A DNA stretch of 64,000 nucleotides from Minisyncoccota bacterium. Lineage in GTDB: Bacteria > Patescibacteriota > Minisyncoccia > Phycocordibacterales > VMEP01. The DNA is taken from NCBI GenBank assembly GCA_041661305.1, contig JBAZUR010000001.1:167077-231076 (forward strand). The letters are read 5' to 3'. The notes below the pieces were generated by a model, which searched no databases, was not told the origin of the DNA, and was given only the letters and a program-made list of their open reading frames with translations. The number at the start of each line of letters is the position of its first letter. Position 1 is the stretch's first letter. This document shows positions 9,119 through 47,637 of this stretch, piece after piece. Position numbers and translations under genes: made by a program.

Positions 9119-9583
9119 TTATTTCTTTTTTAGTTCTTCTATTTCGCGGACGATAGTCATGAGTTGATTCTCTATGTTTGTGAGTAGTTTTTTATCTTCG
9201 CGGTCTTTTTTCTCTTCCTCTGTTTCATCTTCTTGAATATCCTCAACATCCTCCTGAATGTCTTCAACGTCTTCTTGAATTTCCTCAACATCCTCCTGGA
9301 TTTCTTCAATGTCCTCGGAAATTTCTTCGATGTCTTTTTCAACTGCATGTAGTTGGGCAGTGGTGCGGTTTATCGTCAGTTGAATGAAAATTGATAGGTA
9401 TATAGCCTCAAGAGAAACTATTGTTGTTAGAATGAGCATTATCTTATCAAGAGCTACTCCAAAAATAGCTAGCACAAAAATTCCAACAAAAAATAAGGTA
9501 TGAACAACAAGCGATGGGACCGAGCCGATTCCACCGGTAATTTTCATCGAATATTTTTCTAATAGATGTCTGAACCTTTTCAT
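9119..9583 (-). CDS. Membrane protein with a C-terminal acidic tandem-repeat tail (EDIEEIQEDVEEIQEDVEDIQEDVEDIQEDETEEE).
   Basis: N-terminal TM helices. Repeated (E/D)I(Q/E)EDVE units. Confidence 0.55.
   Translation of the reverse strand: MKRFRHLLEKYSMKITGGIGSVPSLVVHTLFFVGIFVLAIFGVALDKIMLILTTIVSLEAIYLSIFIQLTINRTTAQLHAVEKDIEEISEDIEEIQEDVEEIQEDVEDIQEDVEDIQEDETEEEKKDREDKKLLTNIENQLMTIVREIEELKKK
9200..9345. repeat. Degenerate tandem DNA repeats of about 15-18 bp encoding the acidic heptad-like repeats.
   Basis: Repeated units ...tcctcaacatcctcctgaatgtcttcaacgtcttcttgaat... visible in the DNA. Confidence 0.5.
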
Positions 9584-9676: not shown

Positions 9677-12502
9677 ATGGAACAATACGACCACAAGAAA
9701 ATAGAAAAGAAATGGCAAAAAATTTGGGAGGAAGAAAATACTTTTGCGACTAGCGATGATTTAAGTAAACCAAAATCGTATGTTCTTGATATGTTTCCAT
9801 ATCCATCTGGTGAAGGCTTGCACACCGGACACGTTAAGGTTTATACAGCAAGCGATGTTTACGCACGCTATAAACGCTTAAACGGTTTTCGTGTACTTCA
9901 CCCAACGGGATGGGATGCTTTTGGTTTGCCGGCGGAACGGTTTGCGATAAAAAATAAAGTTCACCCTCGAGTTTCTGTTGATAATAATGTCGCGAATTTT
10001 AAGCGACAAATGAAGGCTATCGGCCTTTCGTATGATTGGGATAGGGAAATAGACACCACTGATCCAAAATTTTATAAATGGACACAATGGATGTTTCTTA
10101 AAATGTATGAAAAAGGTTTGGCTTACGAAGCTTATCAGCCGATAGTTTGGTGTCCAACATGCCAGACTGGTTTATCCAACGAAGACTTGGAGGGTAACGC
10201 TTGTGAAATTTGCGGGACTGTTGCGGAAAAGAAGCCAATGCGACAATGGGTTCTTAAAATCACGGAATACGCAGATCGCCTTGTTGACGATTTAGAGATT
10301 TTGAAAGATTGGCCAGAATCATTTAAAGAGGCTGAAAGAAATTGGATAGGAAGAAGCGAAGGATCGGAGATAGATTTTAAAATAGATGGTGTAGATAAAA
10401 AATTTACTATTTTCACAACGCGGGCAGATACGCTTTTCGGAGCAACATATGTTGTTTTGTCGCCTGAACATAAATTAATTTCTGAGCTTAGGCCCAATAT
10501 CAAAAATTGGGATGAAGTTGCTCAATATCAAGAAATAACGAGTAAGAAGACAGAAATAGAGCGAACATCTCTAGGGAAAGAAAAAACCGGCGTAAAACTA
10601 GATGGTGTTTGGGCTATTAACCCTGCAAATGAAGAAAAGTTGCCAATATTTATAGCCGACTACGTACTCGCTCATTATGGGACGGGAGCAATTATGGCTG
10701 TGCCTGCGCACGATGAGCGTGATTTTGATTTTGCAAAGAAATTTAACTTACCTATTAGAACTGTGATTGAGCCAGTTACGGGAGAGGTTCAACAAAACGA
10801 AGAGAAAAGAGAAAGTATAGTTGCGCTTGTGAGAGATCCTAAGAATGGGAAAATTTTGTCTCTTAATTGGGGAGAGAAATACGGGGGTCAATTGTTTGTT
10901 GGCGGAGGTATAGAGGAAGGGGAAGACATAGAGAGTGCTGCCATTAGGGAGACAAAAGAAGAAACTGGATATAGTGAAGTTCGTTTAATCGGCACTTCGG
11001 AGGTAATTCACCATCATTATTTTGCACACTCGAAAGGGGTGGCAAGGAATATCGATGCGATTGGTTTGTATTTTGAGCTTGTTGGAAATAAACAAGAAGC
11101 TTTGTCTCATGATGAATCAGAGAAAGGTAAATTTAAAGTTGAATGGATAACTGAGTCAGAAGCAGAGAAAAACGTGACGGACGCACTACATAGATATGTA
11201 TTTCAAAAATTTATACAAAACAAAGTATATACAGGAAGTGGAATTCTAACCGAGTCAAAAGATTTTAGCGGTATAGATAGTGAGGAAGCAAAAATAAAAA
11301 TTACAGAATTTGTCGGTGGAAAAATAAAAACGACCTATAAGCTCCGCGATTGGGTTTTTTCTCGCCAGCGATATTGGGGTGAGCCAATTCCAATAATCCA
11401 CTGTGAAAAATGCGGGGTTGTTCCGGTGCCAGAAAAAGACTTACCGGTAGTTTTACCAGATGTTAAGTCATATGAACCAACAGGTACGGGCGAGTCTCCA
11501 CTCGCGGAGATTTCAGAATGGGTAAATACAGAATGTCCTAAATGTGGCGGTGCTGGAAAAAGGGAAACAAACACGATGCCACAGTGGGCTGGGTCATCTT
11601 GGTATTACTTGCGTTTTATTGATCCAAATAATAATGAAGCTTTTGTTGACGCAAAAAGCGAAAAAGAGTGGATGCCAGTTGATTTGTATGTTGGTGGAGC
11701 GGAGCACGCAACGAGACATCTTATATACGCACGGTTTTGGCATAAATTTTTATATGATTTAGGAATGGTGTCGAGCAAAGAACCATTCATGCGTCTTGAG
11801 GGTGTTGGTCTTATTTTGGCTGGTGGTGGCGTAAAAATGTCCAAACGTTTGGGAAATATTGTTAACCCAGACGAAATAGTTGAATTATATGGAGCCGATA
11901 CTCTTAGAATTTATGAAATGTTTATGGGTCCTTTTGGACAAGCTAGTATCTGGGAGACTAAATCAATAATTGGTCCAAGAAGATTTTTGGAACGAGTATG
12001 GAAACTACAAGAAAAAATTTCAGACGTTAAAGAAAGCGATAAGACAGAAGTTGTCATTAATCAAACAATAAAAAAAGTTGGAGAAGACATTGAGGGTTTT
12101 AAGTTTAATACAGCAATAAGCCAGATGATGATTTTAACAAGTGCCCTTGAGGCGGAAGAGTACATTTCCCGCAAATCATTTGAGTCATTAGTTTTACTCT
12201 TGGCTCCATTTGCGCCACATTTTTCTGAGGAGTTGTGGGCTATTTTGGGCAACGAAAATTCAATCAATAAAAGTTCTTGGCCAGTATACGAAGAGTCTAA
12301 ATTAGTTGGTGGTACTGTCGTGGTTGCGGTACAAGTAAACGGGAAATTGCGGGATACGCTCTCGTTTAATAACGATGTCTCCGAAGAAGGTGTTGCAAAA
12401 GAAGTTATGGACTCTCCTCGTGTAAAAACATGGATTTCGGATAAAAAAATAAAGAAGACAATTTACATAAAAGGCCGTTTGTTTAGTATTGTTACAGAGT
12501 AA
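9677..12502 (+). CDS. leuS: Leucyl-tRNA synthetase with an embedded NUDIX hydrolase domain (about aa 368-550).
   Basis: Class-I HIGH region (PYPSGEGLHTGHVKVY). TTRADT editing-domain motif. AVPAHDERDFDFA. KMSKRLGN. The internal stretch GGGIEEGEDIESAAIRETKEETGY is a canonical Nudix box (Gx5Ex7REUxEExGU). Confidence 0.9.
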   Translation: MEQYDHKKIEKKWQKIWEEENTFATSDDLSKPKSYVLDMFPYPSGEGLHTGHVKVYTASDVYARYKRLNGFRVLHPTGWDAFGLPAERFAIKNKVHPRVSVDNNVANFKRQMKAIGLSYDWDREIDTTDPKFYKWTQWMFLKMYEKGLAYEAYQPIVWCPTCQTGLSNEDLEGNACEICGTVAEKKPMRQWVLKITEYADRLVDDLEILKDWPESFKEAERNWIGRSEGSEIDFKIDGVDKKFTIFTTRADTLFGATYVVLSPEHKLISELRPNIKNWDEVAQYQEITSKKTEIERTSLGKEKTGVKLDGVWAINPANEEKLPIFIADYVLAHYGTGAIMAVPAHDERDFDFAKKFNLPIRTVIEPVTGEVQQNEEKRESIVALVRDPKNGKILSLNWGEKYGGQLFVGGGIEEGEDIESAAIRETKEETGYSEVRLIGTSEVIHHHYFAHSKGVARNIDAIGLYFELVGNKQEALSHDESEKGKFKVEWITESEAEKNVTDALHRYVFQKFIQNKVYTGSGILTESKDFSGIDSEEAKIKITEFVGGKIKTTYKLRDWVFSRQRYWGEPIPIIHCEKCGVVPVPEKDLPVVLPDVKSYEPTGTGESPLAEISEWVNTECPKCGGAGKRETNTMPQWAGSSWYYLRFIDPNNNEAFVDAKSEKEWMPVDLYVGGAEHATRHLIYARFWHKFLYDLGMVSSKEPFMRLEGVGLILAGGGVKMSKRLGNIVNPDEIVELYGADTLRIYEMFMGPFGQASIWETKSIIGPRRFLERVWKLQEKISDVKESDKTEVVINQTIKKVGEDIEGFKFNTAISQMMILTSALEAEEYISRKSFESLVLLLAPFAPHFSEELWAILGNENSINKSSWPVYEESKLVGGTVVVAVQVNGKLRDTLSFNNDVSEEGVAKEVMDSPRVKTWISDKKIKKTIYIKGRLFSIVTE

Positions 12503-12590: not shown

Positions 12591-13619
12591 ATGCCACAGA
12601 TTAATTTTAAACCAAAACAAGTTGTTAAGAAGCTATTAGCCGTTCTTCCTGAGCGTAATTTTGATGTCATTGTTAATCGCTTTGGTTTAGGTGAATCAAG
12701 TGAAGCGAAAACACTAGATGCAATTGGTAAAAAGTATGGCATTACTCGTGAGCGTGTTCGTCAGATTGAAAATTTTTCTCTTCAATCAATTAAAAAATCA
12801 GAGGTTTTTGAGAAGGAAAAAGAAGCCTTTGAAAACCTCTTTTCTGCGGTACAAGCTCTTGGTGCAGTTGTTTCAGAAGAAGAACTACTCGCTCATTTTT
12901 CTGACGACCGAGCCACACAGAACCATATCAATTTTTTCCTAGTCTTGGGTGATGCCTTCGTTCGAGCAAAAGAAGACGGTCATTTTAAGCATCGATGGAC
13001 CGTTGATTCGGAGGTTTCGGAAAAAGTTCATAGTTCACTAAAAAAACTTTACGAAGGATTGAGCGATGAAGAAATAGTCCCCGAGGGGGAACTAGTCACA
13101 CGTTTTTTGGGACACCTTAAAGATGTTTCTGAAAAATATCGCGATGAAGAAATTTTGAAGCGTTGGTTGAAACTTTCTAAGTTAATTGACCGCAATCCAT
13201 TTGGTGAATGGGGACGTGCTTCCTCTTCTAATATTCGTGCTCGTGGTATGAGAGACTATGCCTACCTAGTTTTGCGTAGACACGGTTCCCCAATGCATTT
13301 TTCTGAGGTTGCAAAAGCAATCACAACTTCGTTTAAAAAGAAGGCTCACGTTGCCACTTGCCACAATGAACTCATCAAAGACAAGCGTTTCGTTTTGGTA
13401 GGGCGTGGTTTATACGCCCTTTCTGAGTGGGGCTACAATAAAGGTGTTGTTCGTGACGTTATAAAAGAGCTTTTAAAAAAAGAAGGACCAATGAGTCGTG
13501 AAGATATCTTAAGGCGTGTGATGAAGGAGAGGTATGTGAAGGAAAACACTGTGTTAGTTAATCTCCAAAACACTAACAATTTTAAGAAAAATAAGAGTGG
13601 TTTGTACGTAGCCGTTTAA
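12591..13619 (+). CDS. Sigma-70 region-4-like HTH domain protein (N-terminal about 70 aa) with an uncharacterised 270-aa C-terminal region. Not a canonical sigma factor, as there is no region 2.
   Basis: TLDAIGKKYGITRERVRQIENFSLQSIKK closely resembles sigma-70 region 4.2. Confidence 0.6.
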   Translation: MPQINFKPKQVVKKLLAVLPERNFDVIVNRFGLGESSEAKTLDAIGKKYGITRERVRQIENFSLQSIKKSEVFEKEKEAFENLFSAVQALGAVVSEEELLAHFSDDRATQNHINFFLVLGDAFVRAKEDGHFKHRWTVDSEVSEKVHSSLKKLYEGLSDEEIVPEGELVTRFLGHLKDVSEKYRDEEILKRWLKLSKLIDRNPFGEWGRASSSNIRARGMRDYAYLVLRRHGSPMHFSEVAKAITTSFKKKAHVATCHNELIKDKRFVLVGRGLYALSEWGYNKGVVRDVIKELLKKEGPMSREDILRRVMKERYVKENTVLVNLQNTNNFKKNKSGLYVAV

Positions 13620-39247: not shown

Positions 39248-39700
39248 ATGAAAATAAAGATAAAATCTAAAAAGATTTTAGAAAAATCATACGGTATAAT
39301 TGTTGCTTATAAACAAAGCAGTACGGAGACAAAATACCTTATTATTCAAAGCAAAGGTACGAATGATTGGAGTTTTCCAAAAGGACATGCCGAAAAAGAT
39401 GAAACTTCAGTTGAGACTGCATTAAGAGAACTAAAGGAGGAAACCGGAATCTCGCAAATAAGTCTTATTCCCGATGTGTCATTCTCTGATAAGTACAGAT
39501 ATAAAGCCAATGGTATATGGAATCGAAAACAAGCTACATTCTTTGTTGGTATTACAGATAATCTAAATGTAAAAATACAACAAGAAGAAGTGGTAAATTA
39601 TATCTGGTCTAATTATGATGATGCGGTAAAAATTCTAACTTTTGAAAATCAACGAAAAATCTTGCGTGAAGCCTATTCTAAAATACTAGAAATCAATTAG
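39248..39700 (+). CDS. NUDIX hydrolase (Ap4A/NTP pyrophosphohydrolase-like).
   Basis: Canonical Nudix box GHAEKDETSVETALRELKEETGIS. Confidence 0.8.
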   Translation: MKIKIKSKKILEKSYGIIVAYKQSSTETKYLIIQSKGTNDWSFPKGHAEKDETSVETALRELKEETGISQISLIPDVSFSDKYRYKANGIWNRKQATFFVGITDNLNVKIQQEEVVNYIWSNYDDAVKILTFENQRKILREAYSKILEIN

Positions 39701-39798
39701 TAATAAGTCACAGTGTGTTCCTATGTACTGAAAATAATAATTATAGTATTGTAGTGTAATCCTACATAAACAGATAGATCCAGTTTAAATTGATTTTT

Positions 39799-41139
39799 AT
39801 GACCAAAGTTATTACACGTTTTCCACCTTCCCCAACTGGAGAAATTCATATTGGCAACATGCGAACCATGTTGTTTAATTATTTGTATGCAAAATATTTT
39901 AATGGAGAGATTTTCCTTAGGTTTGAGGATACTGATAAAGAAAGGAGTAAAAAGGAATACGAATCTATTGTCATAGATGGGTTACATGCTTTAGGTTTAA
40001 ATTTTGACCATGGTCCATTCAGGCAATCAGAAAGAGGTGCTATCTATAAAGAAAAATTATTAGAACTCATCAAGCTTGGACGTGCTTATGAAGCTGAAGA
40101 CTCATTGGGTGGTTCTGGAAAAGCCATTAGGTTCAAGAATCCGAACAAAATTATAACCTTTGATGACAAAGTTCGTGGTCATGTATCTATTGATTCAAGT
40201 ATTTTTGGTGACTTTGTTATTGCGAGGAATATTGATAATCCAATTTACCATTTTGCTGTTGTTGTGGATGACATGGATATGGGAGTTACCCATATAATTA
40301 GGGGGGAAGACCATATTACAAGTACTCCTAGGCAGATACTTCTACTAGAAGCTTTGGGTGGGAACATACCCGTTTATGCTCATTTGCCACTCATTGTTGG
40401 CGAAGACAAGAAGAAATTGTCTAAACGACATGGTGCCACCTCTGTCAGCGGTTTTTTAAAGCAAGGTTATTTGCCGTCTGCTTTAGTTAATTATCTTGCA
40501 TTCTTGGGATGGAACCCTGGGGGCGAACGGGAAATATACTCATTAAAAGAGTTAACTGAGATATTTGGTTTGGATAGAGTGGGCAAAAATCCAGCTAAAT
40601 TTGATTACAATAAACTCAATAATATAAATTATCATTACATGATTAATTTATCCGAAGACGAATATAGGACAAATCTTTTTATGTTTTTAAATGAAGAATA
40701 CTCCAAACTTTTTAATGCTAATTTCACTATTTCTAATACAGTAATACAAAATGTAATAAAACCAAGAATAAAAAAGTTTTCGGAAGTGTCGGACATGATC
40801 ACTAACGGGGAACTAGATTATTTTTTTAAGAAGCCACCAGTAAATTATGATTTGATTCGGTTTAAAACTGATTCTATTGAAAAGACAAAAAGCATTCTTG
40901 AAAAGTTAAAGGTATTAATAGGGAACATATCAAGTAATGACTGGAACACGGATGGTTTGAAAAATAATATATCTACGCTTTTTACAGAATACGGTGTTGG
41001 AAATGTTCTCCACCCTCTAAGAGTTGTTTTATCGGGGAAAAAAGAATCTCCAGATCCATTCACGTTAAGCTATATTCTGGGCAAAAAAGAGACTTTGGAG
41101 CGAATTGATTCCTGTCTTGCTAAGCCAAATAATTTGTAA
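39799..41139 (+). CDS. gltX: Glutamyl-tRNA synthetase, copy 1 (within the AT-rich island).
   Basis: PSPTGEIHIGNMRTMLFNYLYA (HIGH region), KLSKRHG (KMSKS), full-length anticodon-binding domain. The ORF-track start at 39790 is TTG; ATG at 39799 (MTKVITRF) preferred. Confidence 0.85.
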   Translation: MTKVITRFPPSPTGEIHIGNMRTMLFNYLYAKYFNGEIFLRFEDTDKERSKKEYESIVIDGLHALGLNFDHGPFRQSERGAIYKEKLLELIKLGRAYEAEDSLGGSGKAIRFKNPNKIITFDDKVRGHVSIDSSIFGDFVIARNIDNPIYHFAVVVDDMDMGVTHIIRGEDHITSTPRQILLLEALGGNIPVYAHLPLIVGEDKKKLSKRHGATSVSGFLKQGYLPSALVNYLAFLGWNPGGEREIYSLKELTEIFGLDRVGKNPAKFDYNKLNNINYHYMINLSEDEYRTNLFMFLNEEYSKLFNANFTISNTVIQNVIKPRIKKFSEVSDMITNGELDYFFKKPPVNYDLIRFKTDSIEKTKSILEKLKVLIGNISSNDWNTDGLKNNISTLFTEYGVGNVLHPLRVVLSGKKESPDPFTLSYILGKKETLERIDSCLAKPNNL

Positions 41140-42038
41140 TGAAATATATTGACAATTCAACTTATAAATATAACAAAACGTACCCAATAGTTAAGTTGTC
41201 GGATATTTATTTAGATCAAAAAGATGAAGGGGTGTTGTTAGAAAAAATTAAAGATTCCCCCTGGTATATATACAGTTCAGATTTGATTAAAAAAAATTCA
41301 TTCCTAAAATTAAAACAAATAATATCGTTAACCAAAGACGTTGAGTTAATAGTAAAAACATATTATCCCAATATTAATATCAAGCACCTTTCTATTGGTG
41401 GATCTTATCTTTTCAAAAACGGAGAGTCCAATGATATTGACTTTAACGTAATAGTTGAGGGTAGCTTTTTTGATTATATGGATGTTTTTGAGTTTGATGA
41501 AATTAATAAAAAATTATTTTCCAAAGTCAAAAAAATATCCTTTATGATTTTTGGCGAGGATGATTTATTGTTTGACACTAATATTGATGACACCATTGAA
41601 ACCACTAATTATATCCATACCTCGCTTTGTATGAGAGAGGGGGTTGTTTTCTCGATTAGAAATATCCTTGTGCATGGGTTCGATATATGTAAAAAAGAAA
41701 TTGACACACATAATTTGATAATAAGAATTAAAAGACAGTTGTATCATGCTCGACTCTTGGTTGACGGTAAGGTTAATATACATACAACACAAGAAGAAAG
41801 ATTAGCAAAAGCAGTTAGTCGTATATGTGAAGCAGCTTTTTACCTATCATTAGTATTTCCAGAATTAAAAATTGACCCCGAATCAGTTTTTGAAAGAGAA
41901 ACGACATTGATTACAGAAGGCAACGCAACTGGCGCTTATAGCTGGCTTAAAGAGGTTGAATTTATAGCAGATAATATTGTTGTGAAAGTTTTAAATAATG
42001 GTTATCATGACTCCGTAAGCCCCTATCGTCTAACGTAG
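41139..42038 (+). CDS. Pol-beta-superfamily nucleotidyltransferase domain protein (about 300 aa; MNT/AbiEii/CCA-like GS...DxD core).
   Basis: LSIGGSYLFKNGESNDIDFNVIV matches the hG[GS]-x(9-13)-DhDh NTase motif. Start ATG overlaps the gltX stop (TAATG). Confidence 0.5.
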   Translation: MKYIDNSTYKYNKTYPIVKLSDIYLDQKDEGVLLEKIKDSPWYIYSSDLIKKNSFLKLKQIISLTKDVELIVKTYYPNINIKHLSIGGSYLFKNGESNDIDFNVIVEGSFFDYMDVFEFDEINKKLFSKVKKISFMIFGEDDLLFDTNIDDTIETTNYIHTSLCMREGVVFSIRNILVHGFDICKKEIDTHNLIIRIKRQLYHARLLVDGKVNIHTTQEERLAKAVSRICEAAFYLSLVFPELKIDPESVFERETTLITEGNATGAYSWLKEVEFIADNIVVKVLNNGYHDSVSPYRLT

Positions 42039-42088
42039 GACGTCATCTAATTGAGATGAAAATTTAGGTTCGATACCTAGTAGGGGTT
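42019..42088 (+). ncRNA. tRNA-like cloverleaf candidate (non-canonical anticodon loop) overlapping the 3' end of the NTase gene.
   Basis: Acceptor GCCCCTA/TAGGGGT (7 bp incl. G:U). D-stem GTC/GAC. Anticodon stem TCATC/GATGA with loop TAATTGA (no U33). T-arm TTAGG-TTCGATA-CCTAG (near-consensus T-loop). Not validated by any tool. Confidence 0.2.
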
Positions 42089-42098
42089 CTAGAAAAAA

Positions 42099-47100: not shown

Positions 47101-47637
47101 ATGAATTATTTGGCCACATTACACGATAAAGATATTTTTCCTCAACCAATTAACAAGATCCCTGATTATTATGAAAAAAGGGTAACGGTTAAAGCTATTG
47201 CAAAAAACAAAAAAGGGCAATTTGCTTTTGTCACTAACCCGATTCATAAATTTTGTCTTTTGGCAGGAGGTGGTGTAGAAAACACTAATCTTGAAGCTGA
47301 AATTAAAAGGGAGTGTCTTGAAGAGCTCCGTTATGAAGTTGATGTTGTGGATATTGTTGGTAAAATACACGAGTTTCGTAATAGAGACGCTAAGGAATAT
47401 GAAACTACTTGTTTTTTAGTAGAAACAAAAAATGAAATAAACGAAGATCTCAGGACAGACGATGAAAAGAAAAACGATCTTTTTGTTGTATGGCTTGATG
47501 GCGAGGAGGCTAAGAAAATTTTAGAAGAACAAATTGTGAAGGTTAAGAATGGCGAGATGGTTTTTTATAATACTGCATTTAACGCAGTAAGAGATAAAAT
47601 TTTCTTTGAGGCAATTTACGGTAAGGAGGGTGTTTAG
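47101..47637 (+). CDS. NUDIX-fold protein with a degenerate Nudix box.
   Basis: KRVTVKAIAKNKKGQFAFV beta-strand context. LAGGGVENTNLEAEIKRECLEELRYE approximates REUxEE but the upstream Glu spacing is off. Confidence 0.45.
   Translation: MNYLATLHDKDIFPQPINKIPDYYEKRVTVKAIAKNKKGQFAFVTNPIHKFCLLAGGGVENTNLEAEIKRECLEELRYEVDVVDIVGKIHEFRNRDAKEYETTCFLVETKNEINEDLRTDDEKKNDLFVVWLDGEEAKKILEEQIVKVKNGEMVFYNTAFNAVRDKIFFEAIYGKEGV

Follow-up and report, generated by a model that had tools for sequence, protein, structure and literature searches.

Does the leucyl-tRNA synthetase (LeuRS) encoded at this locus carry a second catalytic domain, and what would such a domain do there? The question arises from leuS in a 64,000-nucleotide stretch of a Minisyncoccota bacterium genome (GenBank assembly GCA_041661305.1, contig JBAZUR010000001.1, positions 167,077 to 231,076; hereafter the window), where a first-pass annotation, made from the sequence alone, had proposed that a complete NUDIX hydrolase domain is inserted in the synthetase. 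Class I synthetases rank among the most highly conserved enzymes, and drugs target bacterial LeuRS precisely at its CP1 editing domain. What lies inside LeuRS proved to be a complete NUDIX domain that is autonomous and whose catalytic box is intact. The NUDIX profile PF00293 matched residues 378-509 over its positions 3-131 of 134, scoring 53.3 bits for the full protein and 56 bits for the isolated insert (Pfam cutoff 21.1). The Nudix box that had been pointed out is also genuine: it conforms to the strict pattern GX5EX7REUXEEXGU, T and Y filling the two "U" positions. The AlphaFold model of the domain alone, for which 42 homologues were used, reached a predicted local distance difference test score (pLDDT) of 92.4 and a predicted template modelling score (pTM) of 0.87 and has the alpha/beta/alpha NUDIX fold, which bears out the idea that the insert folds on its own. 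In the model of the full-length LeuRS, ten-residue blocks over the insert have pLDDT values of 81-94, and the chain enters the NUDIX domain by strand 364-369 and leaves it by strand 522-524.

The position of the insert was established by profile matches and by alignment. The CP1 profile PF13603 is split by the insert, with profile positions 1-151 before it and positions 151-183 picked up again on its far side. In the alignment with the LeuRS of Thermus thermophilus (Tth; 1h3n), residues 1-366 correspond to Tth residues 1-364 and residues 516-717 to Tth residues 375-581. The ~149 residues between them stand in for a ~10-residue loop within CP1, ~20 residues past the editing Asp346. The domain had been annotated as lying after the editing domain, which is incorrect, whereas the annotated spacing between the flanking conserved blocks (~185 aa here, against ~60 aa in canonical enzymes) was about right. 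The annotated span (10776-11335) does contain the insert, but it starts one base out of frame (an in-frame start would be 10775 or 10778) and also covers CP1 residues 516-553. Canonical bacterial LeuRS (T. thermophilus 1h3n/2byt and the E. coli 4aq7 family) has the same domain order and motifs as the window LeuRS; the difference is that its CP1 loop (Tth 365-374) is replaced here by the 149-residue NUDIX domain. None of the solved LeuRS structures has anything at this loop.

The host LeuRS looks intact, with all synthetic and editing motifs kept. The 941-aa protein scored 987.7 bits with the bacterial LeuRS model TIGR00396 leuS_bact (cutoff 548.4) and matched T. thermophilus LeuRS 1h3n with E=6e-220; its full-length AlphaFold model had a pLDDT of 88.5 and a pTM of 0.81. 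In 70 LeuRS sequences, residues H49, G51, H52, C159, C176 and C179 of the N-terminal part were unchanged, as were K720, M721 and K723. The editing residues T247, T248, R249, D251, T252, G335-T-G337 and H345-D346 were invariant in these 70 relatives, regardless of whether the insert was present or absent. The positions of these elements are given in Table 1.

Table 1. Position of domains and motifs of the window LeuRS and its NUDIX insert
Feature	Residues	Nucleotides in the window	Strand	Remark
Complete leuS open reading frame	941 aa + stop	9677..12502	+	Bacterial-type leucyl-tRNA synthetase with embedded NUDIX domain
Catalytic (Rossmann) domain, N-terminal half with ZN-1 module	1-220	9677..10336	+	PF00133 aa 12-224
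HIGH motif	H49-T-G-H52	9821-9832	+	Inside the N-terminal catalytic half
CP1 editing domain, first part	221-366	10337..10774	+	PF13603 aa 221-376, profile 1-151 of 185, 208 bits
T-rich region	T247-T252	10415-10432	+	CP1 first part
Editing motifs	G335-T-G337 and H345-D346		+	CP1 first part
NUDIX hydrolase cassette	367-515	10775..11221	+	In place of the short CP1 loop
Nudix box	G410-x5-E416-x7-R424 E425 T K E428 E429 T G431 Y432	10904..10972	+	Read from sequence
Subtype motif	H445-H-H-Y448-F-A-H-S-K453	11009..11035	+	13-21 residues past the box; NUDIX "X-loop" region
CP1 editing domain, C-terminal part, and strand back to the catalytic core	516-560 (KLRDWVFSRQRYWG)	11222..11356	+	
Catalytic C-terminal half, anticodon-binding and C-terminal domains		11357..12499	+	PF00133; PF08264 aa 794-901
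KMSKS motif	K720-M-S-K-R724	11834-11848	+	In the C-terminal half

Such an architecture could in principle be mimicked by assembly chimerism, by a gene pair with a frameshift or by a motif that arose by chance, and a mis-join had been named as a possible pitfall. We found no support for any of these. The open reading frame (ORF) is uninterrupted, the GC content is continuous across the insert, and no flanking or junction repeats and no mobile-element signatures were found around it. The same architecture and gene neighbourhood occur in many independent assemblies at 71-97% identity, and the profile hidden Markov model (HMM) and fold evidence for a NUDIX domain is highly significant. Because independent assemblies agree, the GC content is continuous and junction repeats are absent, the insert is not an assembly artefact, and we regard an artefactual origin of any kind as extremely improbable.

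The LeuRS-NUDIX fusion is common in public Patescibacteria genomes and also occurs in a clade of gut Bacillota. Among the window LeuRS and its 120 best relatives, 101 of the 121 aligned sequences have the insert, and the other 20 have loops of 6-35 residues at the insertion site. The named NUDIX-containing sequences in this set are from Parcubacteria, Paceibacterota or Patescibacteria. When 1.84 billion representative sequences were scanned by HMMER with the insert alone, 404 matches were obtained, most of the top ones embedded in LeuRS. A scan of species-representative genomes found the window's NUDIX subtype in 84 genomes, mostly of Patescibacteria, and each of the 80 loci retained has the NUDIX domain within leuS, at the site seen in the window. 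This count covers the window's subtype only, as a tight subtype alignment served as the query; the broad 42-sequence alignment was too diverse for a genome scan. About 15 of the 80 loci belong to a gut clade labelled Clostridium, Bacilli, Tenericutes or Bacillota. The insert had at one point seemed rare, as a word-indexed search with the insert only returned six short matches. The full-length search and the HMMER scan refuted this: both the full LeuRS query and the scan found many relatives, and the six-match result was therefore an artefact of search sensitivity.

In public records, these proteins are named "leucine--tRNA ligase", "class I tRNA ligase family protein" or "NUDIX domain-containing protein". 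The NCBIfam matches to the window LeuRS include no model for the LeuRS-NUDIX architecture, and we found no description of the fusion in the Nudix-clan review or in the literature searched, which excluded subscription-only papers. LeuRS-NUDIX proteins thus appear to be present in databases while undescribed and unstudied. The claim that the architecture is non-standard holds in that no solved LeuRS and no paper found has the fusion; the fusion is nevertheless no isolated case, being common in Patescibacteria genomes and present in the gut Bacillota clade.

Close relatives of the window LeuRS differ in this one segment. In the syntenic orthologues P0016 and P0017, whose NUDIX domain is of another subtype, the LeuRS body is 75-91% identical to that of the window, in contrast to 28-30% for the NUDIX segment. 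Their sliding-window identity drops from 85-95% to 25-40% at ~residue 367, rises again past ~residue 517 and is restored to 85-95% by ~residue 541. A further LeuRS at the same locus, P0018, has a 33-residue non-NUDIX loop instead. In P0033, the body is ~53% identical to the window LeuRS, yet the NUDIX domain is 69% identical.

The presence of the NUDIX domain is even polymorphic among strains of one gut Bacillota species, Clostridium sp. CAG:417, whose assignment to Bacillota follows from the neighbouring genes Spore_Cse60, FemAB and VanY. Its leuS alleles encode either a 943-aa LeuRS with NUDIX (a cluster of 367 member sequences) or an 800-aa LeuRS without it (many sequences, one of which is found on 272 contigs of up to 1.29 Mb). 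In the flanks, 355-359 of 360 and 421-422 of 423 residues are identical between the two forms, and the short allele has a canonical GGDISEKAY loop. At the DNA level, the loci are collinear and 98.6-98.9% identical (L063 2879-5710 compared with L172 4001-6403), with ~460 nt replacing ~35 nt. As the alleles with and without NUDIX are nearly identical otherwise, LeuRS can function without the domain, which moves as a self-contained unit. This dispensability and exchangeability argue against an integral role of the domain in the aminoacylation or editing cycle.

Of the 101 embedded copies, ~78 have the strict Nudix box, and no copy of the window's subtype departs from it. W398, G410, E425, E428, E429, K453, E482 and W490 are invariant in 42 diverse copies, E425, E428, E429 and K453 in every subtype. 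The window's subtype is further characterized by the motif IHHHY[FVI]A[HF]SKGV, in which H445, H446, Y448, A450 and K453 are at least 90% conserved. In comparison with a 97% identical relative (synonymous divergence, dS, ~0.17), the ratio of nonsynonymous to synonymous divergence (dN/dS) was 0.10 for the insert and 0.04-0.12 for the LeuRS body; with a 92% identical relative (dS ~0.9), the values were 0.064 and 0.016-0.093. The insert is therefore under purifying selection, as the LeuRS body is. As judged by the strict box, the invariance of E425, E428, E429 and E482 in the 42 diverse copies and the purifying selection, the NUDIX domain is probably catalytically active.

Models of several characterized NUDIX enzymes did not fit the insert. 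The RppH models NF001938 and NF001936 failed (26.3 bits versus a cutoff of 116, and 24.9 versus 118), as did the MutT 8-oxo-dGTPase models TIGR00586 and NF008044 (17.8 bits versus 97.9, and 18.9 versus 148) and, although it aligned over its full length, the model for NudB, the dihydroneopterin triphosphate pyrophosphatase (NF006961; 22.5 bits versus 103). The X-loop downstream of the box sets the substrate specificity of NUDIX enzymes: ADP-ribose pyrophosphatases have a Pro there, NADH pyrophosphatases have the motif SQPWPFPQS past the box, and a Tyr correlates with hydrolases of diadenosine polyphosphates, Ap(n)A (PMC5389931). Neither the Pro nor SQPWPFP was present downstream of the box of the insert (SEVRLIGTSEVIHHHYFAHSKG). 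In Ap(n)A hydrolases, the Tyr is located ~16-18 residues past the Nudix box (Dunn et al. 1999, via PMC5389931). The insert has the conserved Y448 at +16, which sits in a beta-strand in the model; one residue is not diagnostic.

The top sequence-profile matches in the PDB were the decapping effector AvrM14, the lupin Ap4A (diadenosine tetraphosphate) hydrolase and Dcp2-type enzymes, and the fold neighbours of the insert are spread over many NUDIX subfamilies. The fold and the Nudix box are shared with lupin Ap4A hydrolase (1f3y/1jkn), Ndx1, RppH, AvrM14 and Dcp2, which rank among the best sequence-profile and fold matches. The insert also has a Tyr in the region of the X-loop, where Ap(n)A hydrolases have theirs. 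It differs from RppH in failing the curated models by a wide margin and in being acidic. The embedded NUDIX domains have a median net charge of -6 and an isoelectric point (pI) of 5.5, and the window copy is at -9 and pI 5.2. This acidity is a weak argument against direct RNA binding, and a small molecule would be a more likely substrate than RNA. An Ap(n)A-like substrate would agree weakly with the position of Y448 and with the matches to decapping enzymes and Ap4A hydrolase; we put this assignment forward only tentatively. No link to phages was seen in PHROGs, which returned generic NUDIX matches only. In PADLOC-DB, the only match was PDC-S07 (20 bits, ~40 residues around the box), with no defence match beyond generic Nudix similarity.

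Fusions of a class I synthetase or an adenylyl-transferring enzyme with a domain that modifies small molecules have precedents in IleRS-GNAT (NCBIfam NF040702) and in NadM-Nudix (2qjo), a bifunctional NMN adenylyltransferase/Nudix hydrolase. Those two are end-to-end fusions. In LeuRS, by contrast, the NUDIX domain interrupts the editing domain, its copy number ranges from one to three, and it can be exchanged.

Some LeuRS relatives carry more than one inserted domain, and in some a second insertion site lies between the N-terminal catalytic half and CP1. Three NUDIX domains are inserted in P0059 and P0131, and two, both before CP1, in P0137. P0049 and P0055 have a NUDIX domain and an alpha/beta serine hydrolase, and in P0125 a NUDIX domain is followed by a HAD hydrolase. 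In addition, CP1 with its NUDIX domain is found as a free-standing protein (P0001, P0130, P0002, P0139, P0142 and P0134), which extends from the start of CP1 to its C-terminal helix. The gene of P0001 is complete (L005 940-1752), and P0130 (QQG39722.1) is encoded on an 875-kb contig of a metagenome-assembled genome of an Aenigmatarchaeota (DPANN) archaeon. The CP1 of these proteins is of the bacterial LeuRS type and is trimmed in most of them. P0134 has the full CP1 with the GTG and Asp motifs kept; the key CP1 Asp is lost in P0001 and P0130. Another stand-alone CP1+NUDIX gene, at the P0005 locus (L001 2587-3346; also in L002-L004), is split by an internal deletion and a frameshift into ORFs of 181 aa and 77 aa. 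It has the same form in several independent assemblies and may be a pseudogene.

The free-standing proteins resemble the known trans-editing factors (INS/YbaK/ProXp, AlaXp and DTD) in being editing-domain homologues detached from a synthetase, but differ from them in being of the CP1 type and in carrying a NUDIX insert. A 2024 review of editing names no trans-editing factor of the CP1 type (PMC11295145), and a free-standing CP1-type editing protein was not described in the literature that we searched, subscription-only papers lying outside the search. Should they prove active, these free-standing proteins would extend the known trans-editing factors by a class of the CP1 type.

Taking these observations together, we lean slightly towards the reading that the gene encodes the organism's working, editing-competent LeuRS, to which an active accessory NUDIX pyrophosphohydrolase is tethered, probably acting on (di)nucleoside polyphosphates. 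In this reading, an autonomous NUDIX domain has been grafted onto a short surface loop of the CP1 editing domain. It would most likely be a Mg2+-dependent hydrolase of a nucleoside-polyphosphate compound, the lead candidates being (di)nucleoside polyphosphates of the Ap(n)A / Np(n)N type. Its link to LeuRS would probably consist of tethering and co-expression, not of a part in aminoacylation or editing chemistry, and it seems reasonably probable that the domain acts independently of the LeuRS cycle. The accessory cassette has diversified into subtypes within LeuRS genes, and its replacement and loss take place domain-precisely, through recombination between leuS alleles. Several observations weigh against this reading. 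No HMM assigns the insert to any characterized NUDIX subfamily, as the curated NCBIfam equivalogs all scored below cutoff. The closest structure, 2azw (E. faecalis MutT/nudix protein Q836H1, from structural genomics), is of a free-standing protein, unlike the LeuRS-embedded insert, to which it is ~20% identical; its function is listed as undetermined, and therefore no function can be transferred from it. About 20% of the embedded copies, all of other subtypes, have a degenerate box (first Glu replaced by Q/M/F, Arg by A/K/M), and catalysis is therefore not universal in the wider family. These degenerate copies, and the existence of non-enzymatic NUDIX domains elsewhere (PMC5389931), would fit a role of the fold as a ligand sensor, a module binding protein or tRNA, or a structural spacer. 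For the window's subtype, such a non-catalytic role is very unlikely, since this subtype always has the strict box and the invariant E482 and is under strong purifying selection. Finally, the NUDIX clade is found almost only inside LeuRS or joined to CP1. Together with the free-standing CP1+NUDIX proteins, this hints at a real functional coupling with CP1, and simple tethering would leave the association unexplained.

Tighter forms of coupling have to be weighed against tethering. It had been suggested that the NUDIX domain hydrolyses Ap4A and other by-products of the LeuRS site, or aminoacyl-adenylates, as a clean-up in cis, a proofreading step or a signalling module. The appeal of this suggestion is that Ap(n)A is a product of synthetases and a substrate of NUDIX enzymes, to which the Tyr at +16 in the X-loop region, the lupin Ap4A hydrolase among the top sequence matches and the specialization of the NUDIX clade to LeuRS may be added. 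Coupling to aminoacylation stands nonetheless as a proposal that we consider unlikely: the domain is mounted on the mobile CP1 and not on the core that carries out synthesis, close orthologues and even strains of one species do without it, and Ap4A diffuses freely, so that an arrangement in cis is not obviously needed. Aminoacyl-adenylates, for their part, are unlikely NUDIX substrates because they lack a pyrophosphate bond. Nor does a rationale specific to Ap4A explain why an alpha/beta-hydrolase or a HAD domain occupies these sites in relatives. Alternatively, CP1 would present a tRNA terminus from which the NUDIX domain would remove a block that contains pyrophosphate, for instance a CCA end that a toxin has left 3'-pyrophosphorylated, a 5' triphosphate or a nucleotide cap, and the HAD and alpha/beta-hydrolase inserts of relatives would carry out subsequent phosphatase or esterase steps. 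Such tRNA-end repair would agree with the NUDIX domain travelling with CP1, including the free-standing proteins, one of them from a DPANN archaeon, whose ends coincide with those of CP1, with the NUDIX-HAD tandem and the combination of NUDIX and serine hydrolase in one protein, with RppH and decapping enzymes among the structural and sequence neighbours, and with a strain-variable distribution like that of conflict-related genes. We nevertheless hold it to be quite improbable, as the idea is entirely inferential, the acidic domain of the window is unlike a typical RNA-binding surface, the RppH models failed, and no defence or phage signal beyond generic NUDIX matches was found.

The different hydrolase classes on the same scaffold, the presence or absence of NUDIX within a species and the replacement of subtypes between close orthologues could also point to resistance, with the NUDIX domain and the other inserted hydrolases destroying a nucleotide-like inhibitor or a conflict signal directed against LeuRS or translation. 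Inhibitors that mimic the adenylate or act at the editing site are known for LeuRS. We know of no candidate inhibitor for such detoxification, however, linked toxin or immunity genes were not seen (the neighbours are housekeeping genes: YchF, sigma-factor-like, YceG, RNase T and MnmA), and selection within the subtype is purifying, not diversifying; we consider this explanation very unlikely. A broader and speculative proposal, which we consider rather unlikely, is that CP1 of LeuRS in reduced-genome bacteria may be a docking platform for exchangeable, strain-variable hydrolases (one to three NUDIX domains, alpha/beta serine hydrolases and HAD hydrolases) that work together with CP1 on the ends of tRNA or on nucleotide-like toxins directed against translation. 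If true, this platform would be an unrecognised accessory layer of repair or immunity within an essential synthetase, and the free-standing CP1+NUDIX protein of the DPANN archaeon would be its trans-acting form and the first trans-editing-like factor of the CP1 type.

The genes around leuS are arranged in the order YchF, small ORF, LeuRS, sigma70-r4/HARE-HTH protein, DUF8128, YceG, RNase T and MnmA. The gene directly downstream of leuS (12591-13619) encodes a 342-aa protein with sigma-70 region 4 and HARE-HTH, and adjoins leuS in all syntenic relatives examined. Upstream, on the reverse strand (9119-9583), a 154-aa ORF is predicted to encode a membrane segment, after which comes an acidic repeat rich in EDI(E/Q)E; the syntenic loci L166, L167 and L169 keep a comparable small ORF on the reverse strand at this position. 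Elsewhere in the window, the ORFs at 39248-39700 and 47101-47637 were correctly recognized as NUDIX genes in the first-pass annotation (58.7 and 28.4 bits). The recurring theme of synthetase plus NUDIX that it drew from them is not supported, as these free genes share only generic Nudix-box similarity with the insert. The first of them encodes a 150-aa protein and lies 90 nt upstream of, and on the same strand as, the GluRS gene (39790-41139). This adjacency was not found in any of 60 related loci with enough downstream sequence, all from distant relatives (27-51% identical), and a conserved NUDIX-GluRS pair was rejected. At 42019-42089, overlapping the end of the ORF at 41139-42038, ARAGORN called a tRNA-Asn of 71 nt whose anticodon, ATT at position 32, is unusual; this could be a false call or an atypical tRNA.

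In hundreds of uncultured reduced-genome bacteria, belonging to Patescibacteria and to a gut Bacillota clade, the editing domain of LeuRS thus contains a second, apparently active catalytic domain. This domain has been swapped, multiplied, lost or gained, even between conspecific strains, with the host enzyme left undisturbed, which makes LeuRS-NUDIX a natural system for the study of domain-level modularity in an essential protein. The alleles with and without NUDIX, whose flanks are 99-100% identical, are ready isogenic controls for the function of the NUDIX domain. For these organisms of minimal metabolism, the fusion may represent a physical link between translation and the metabolism of nucleotide polyphosphates, such as Ap(n)A alarmones and RNA caps.

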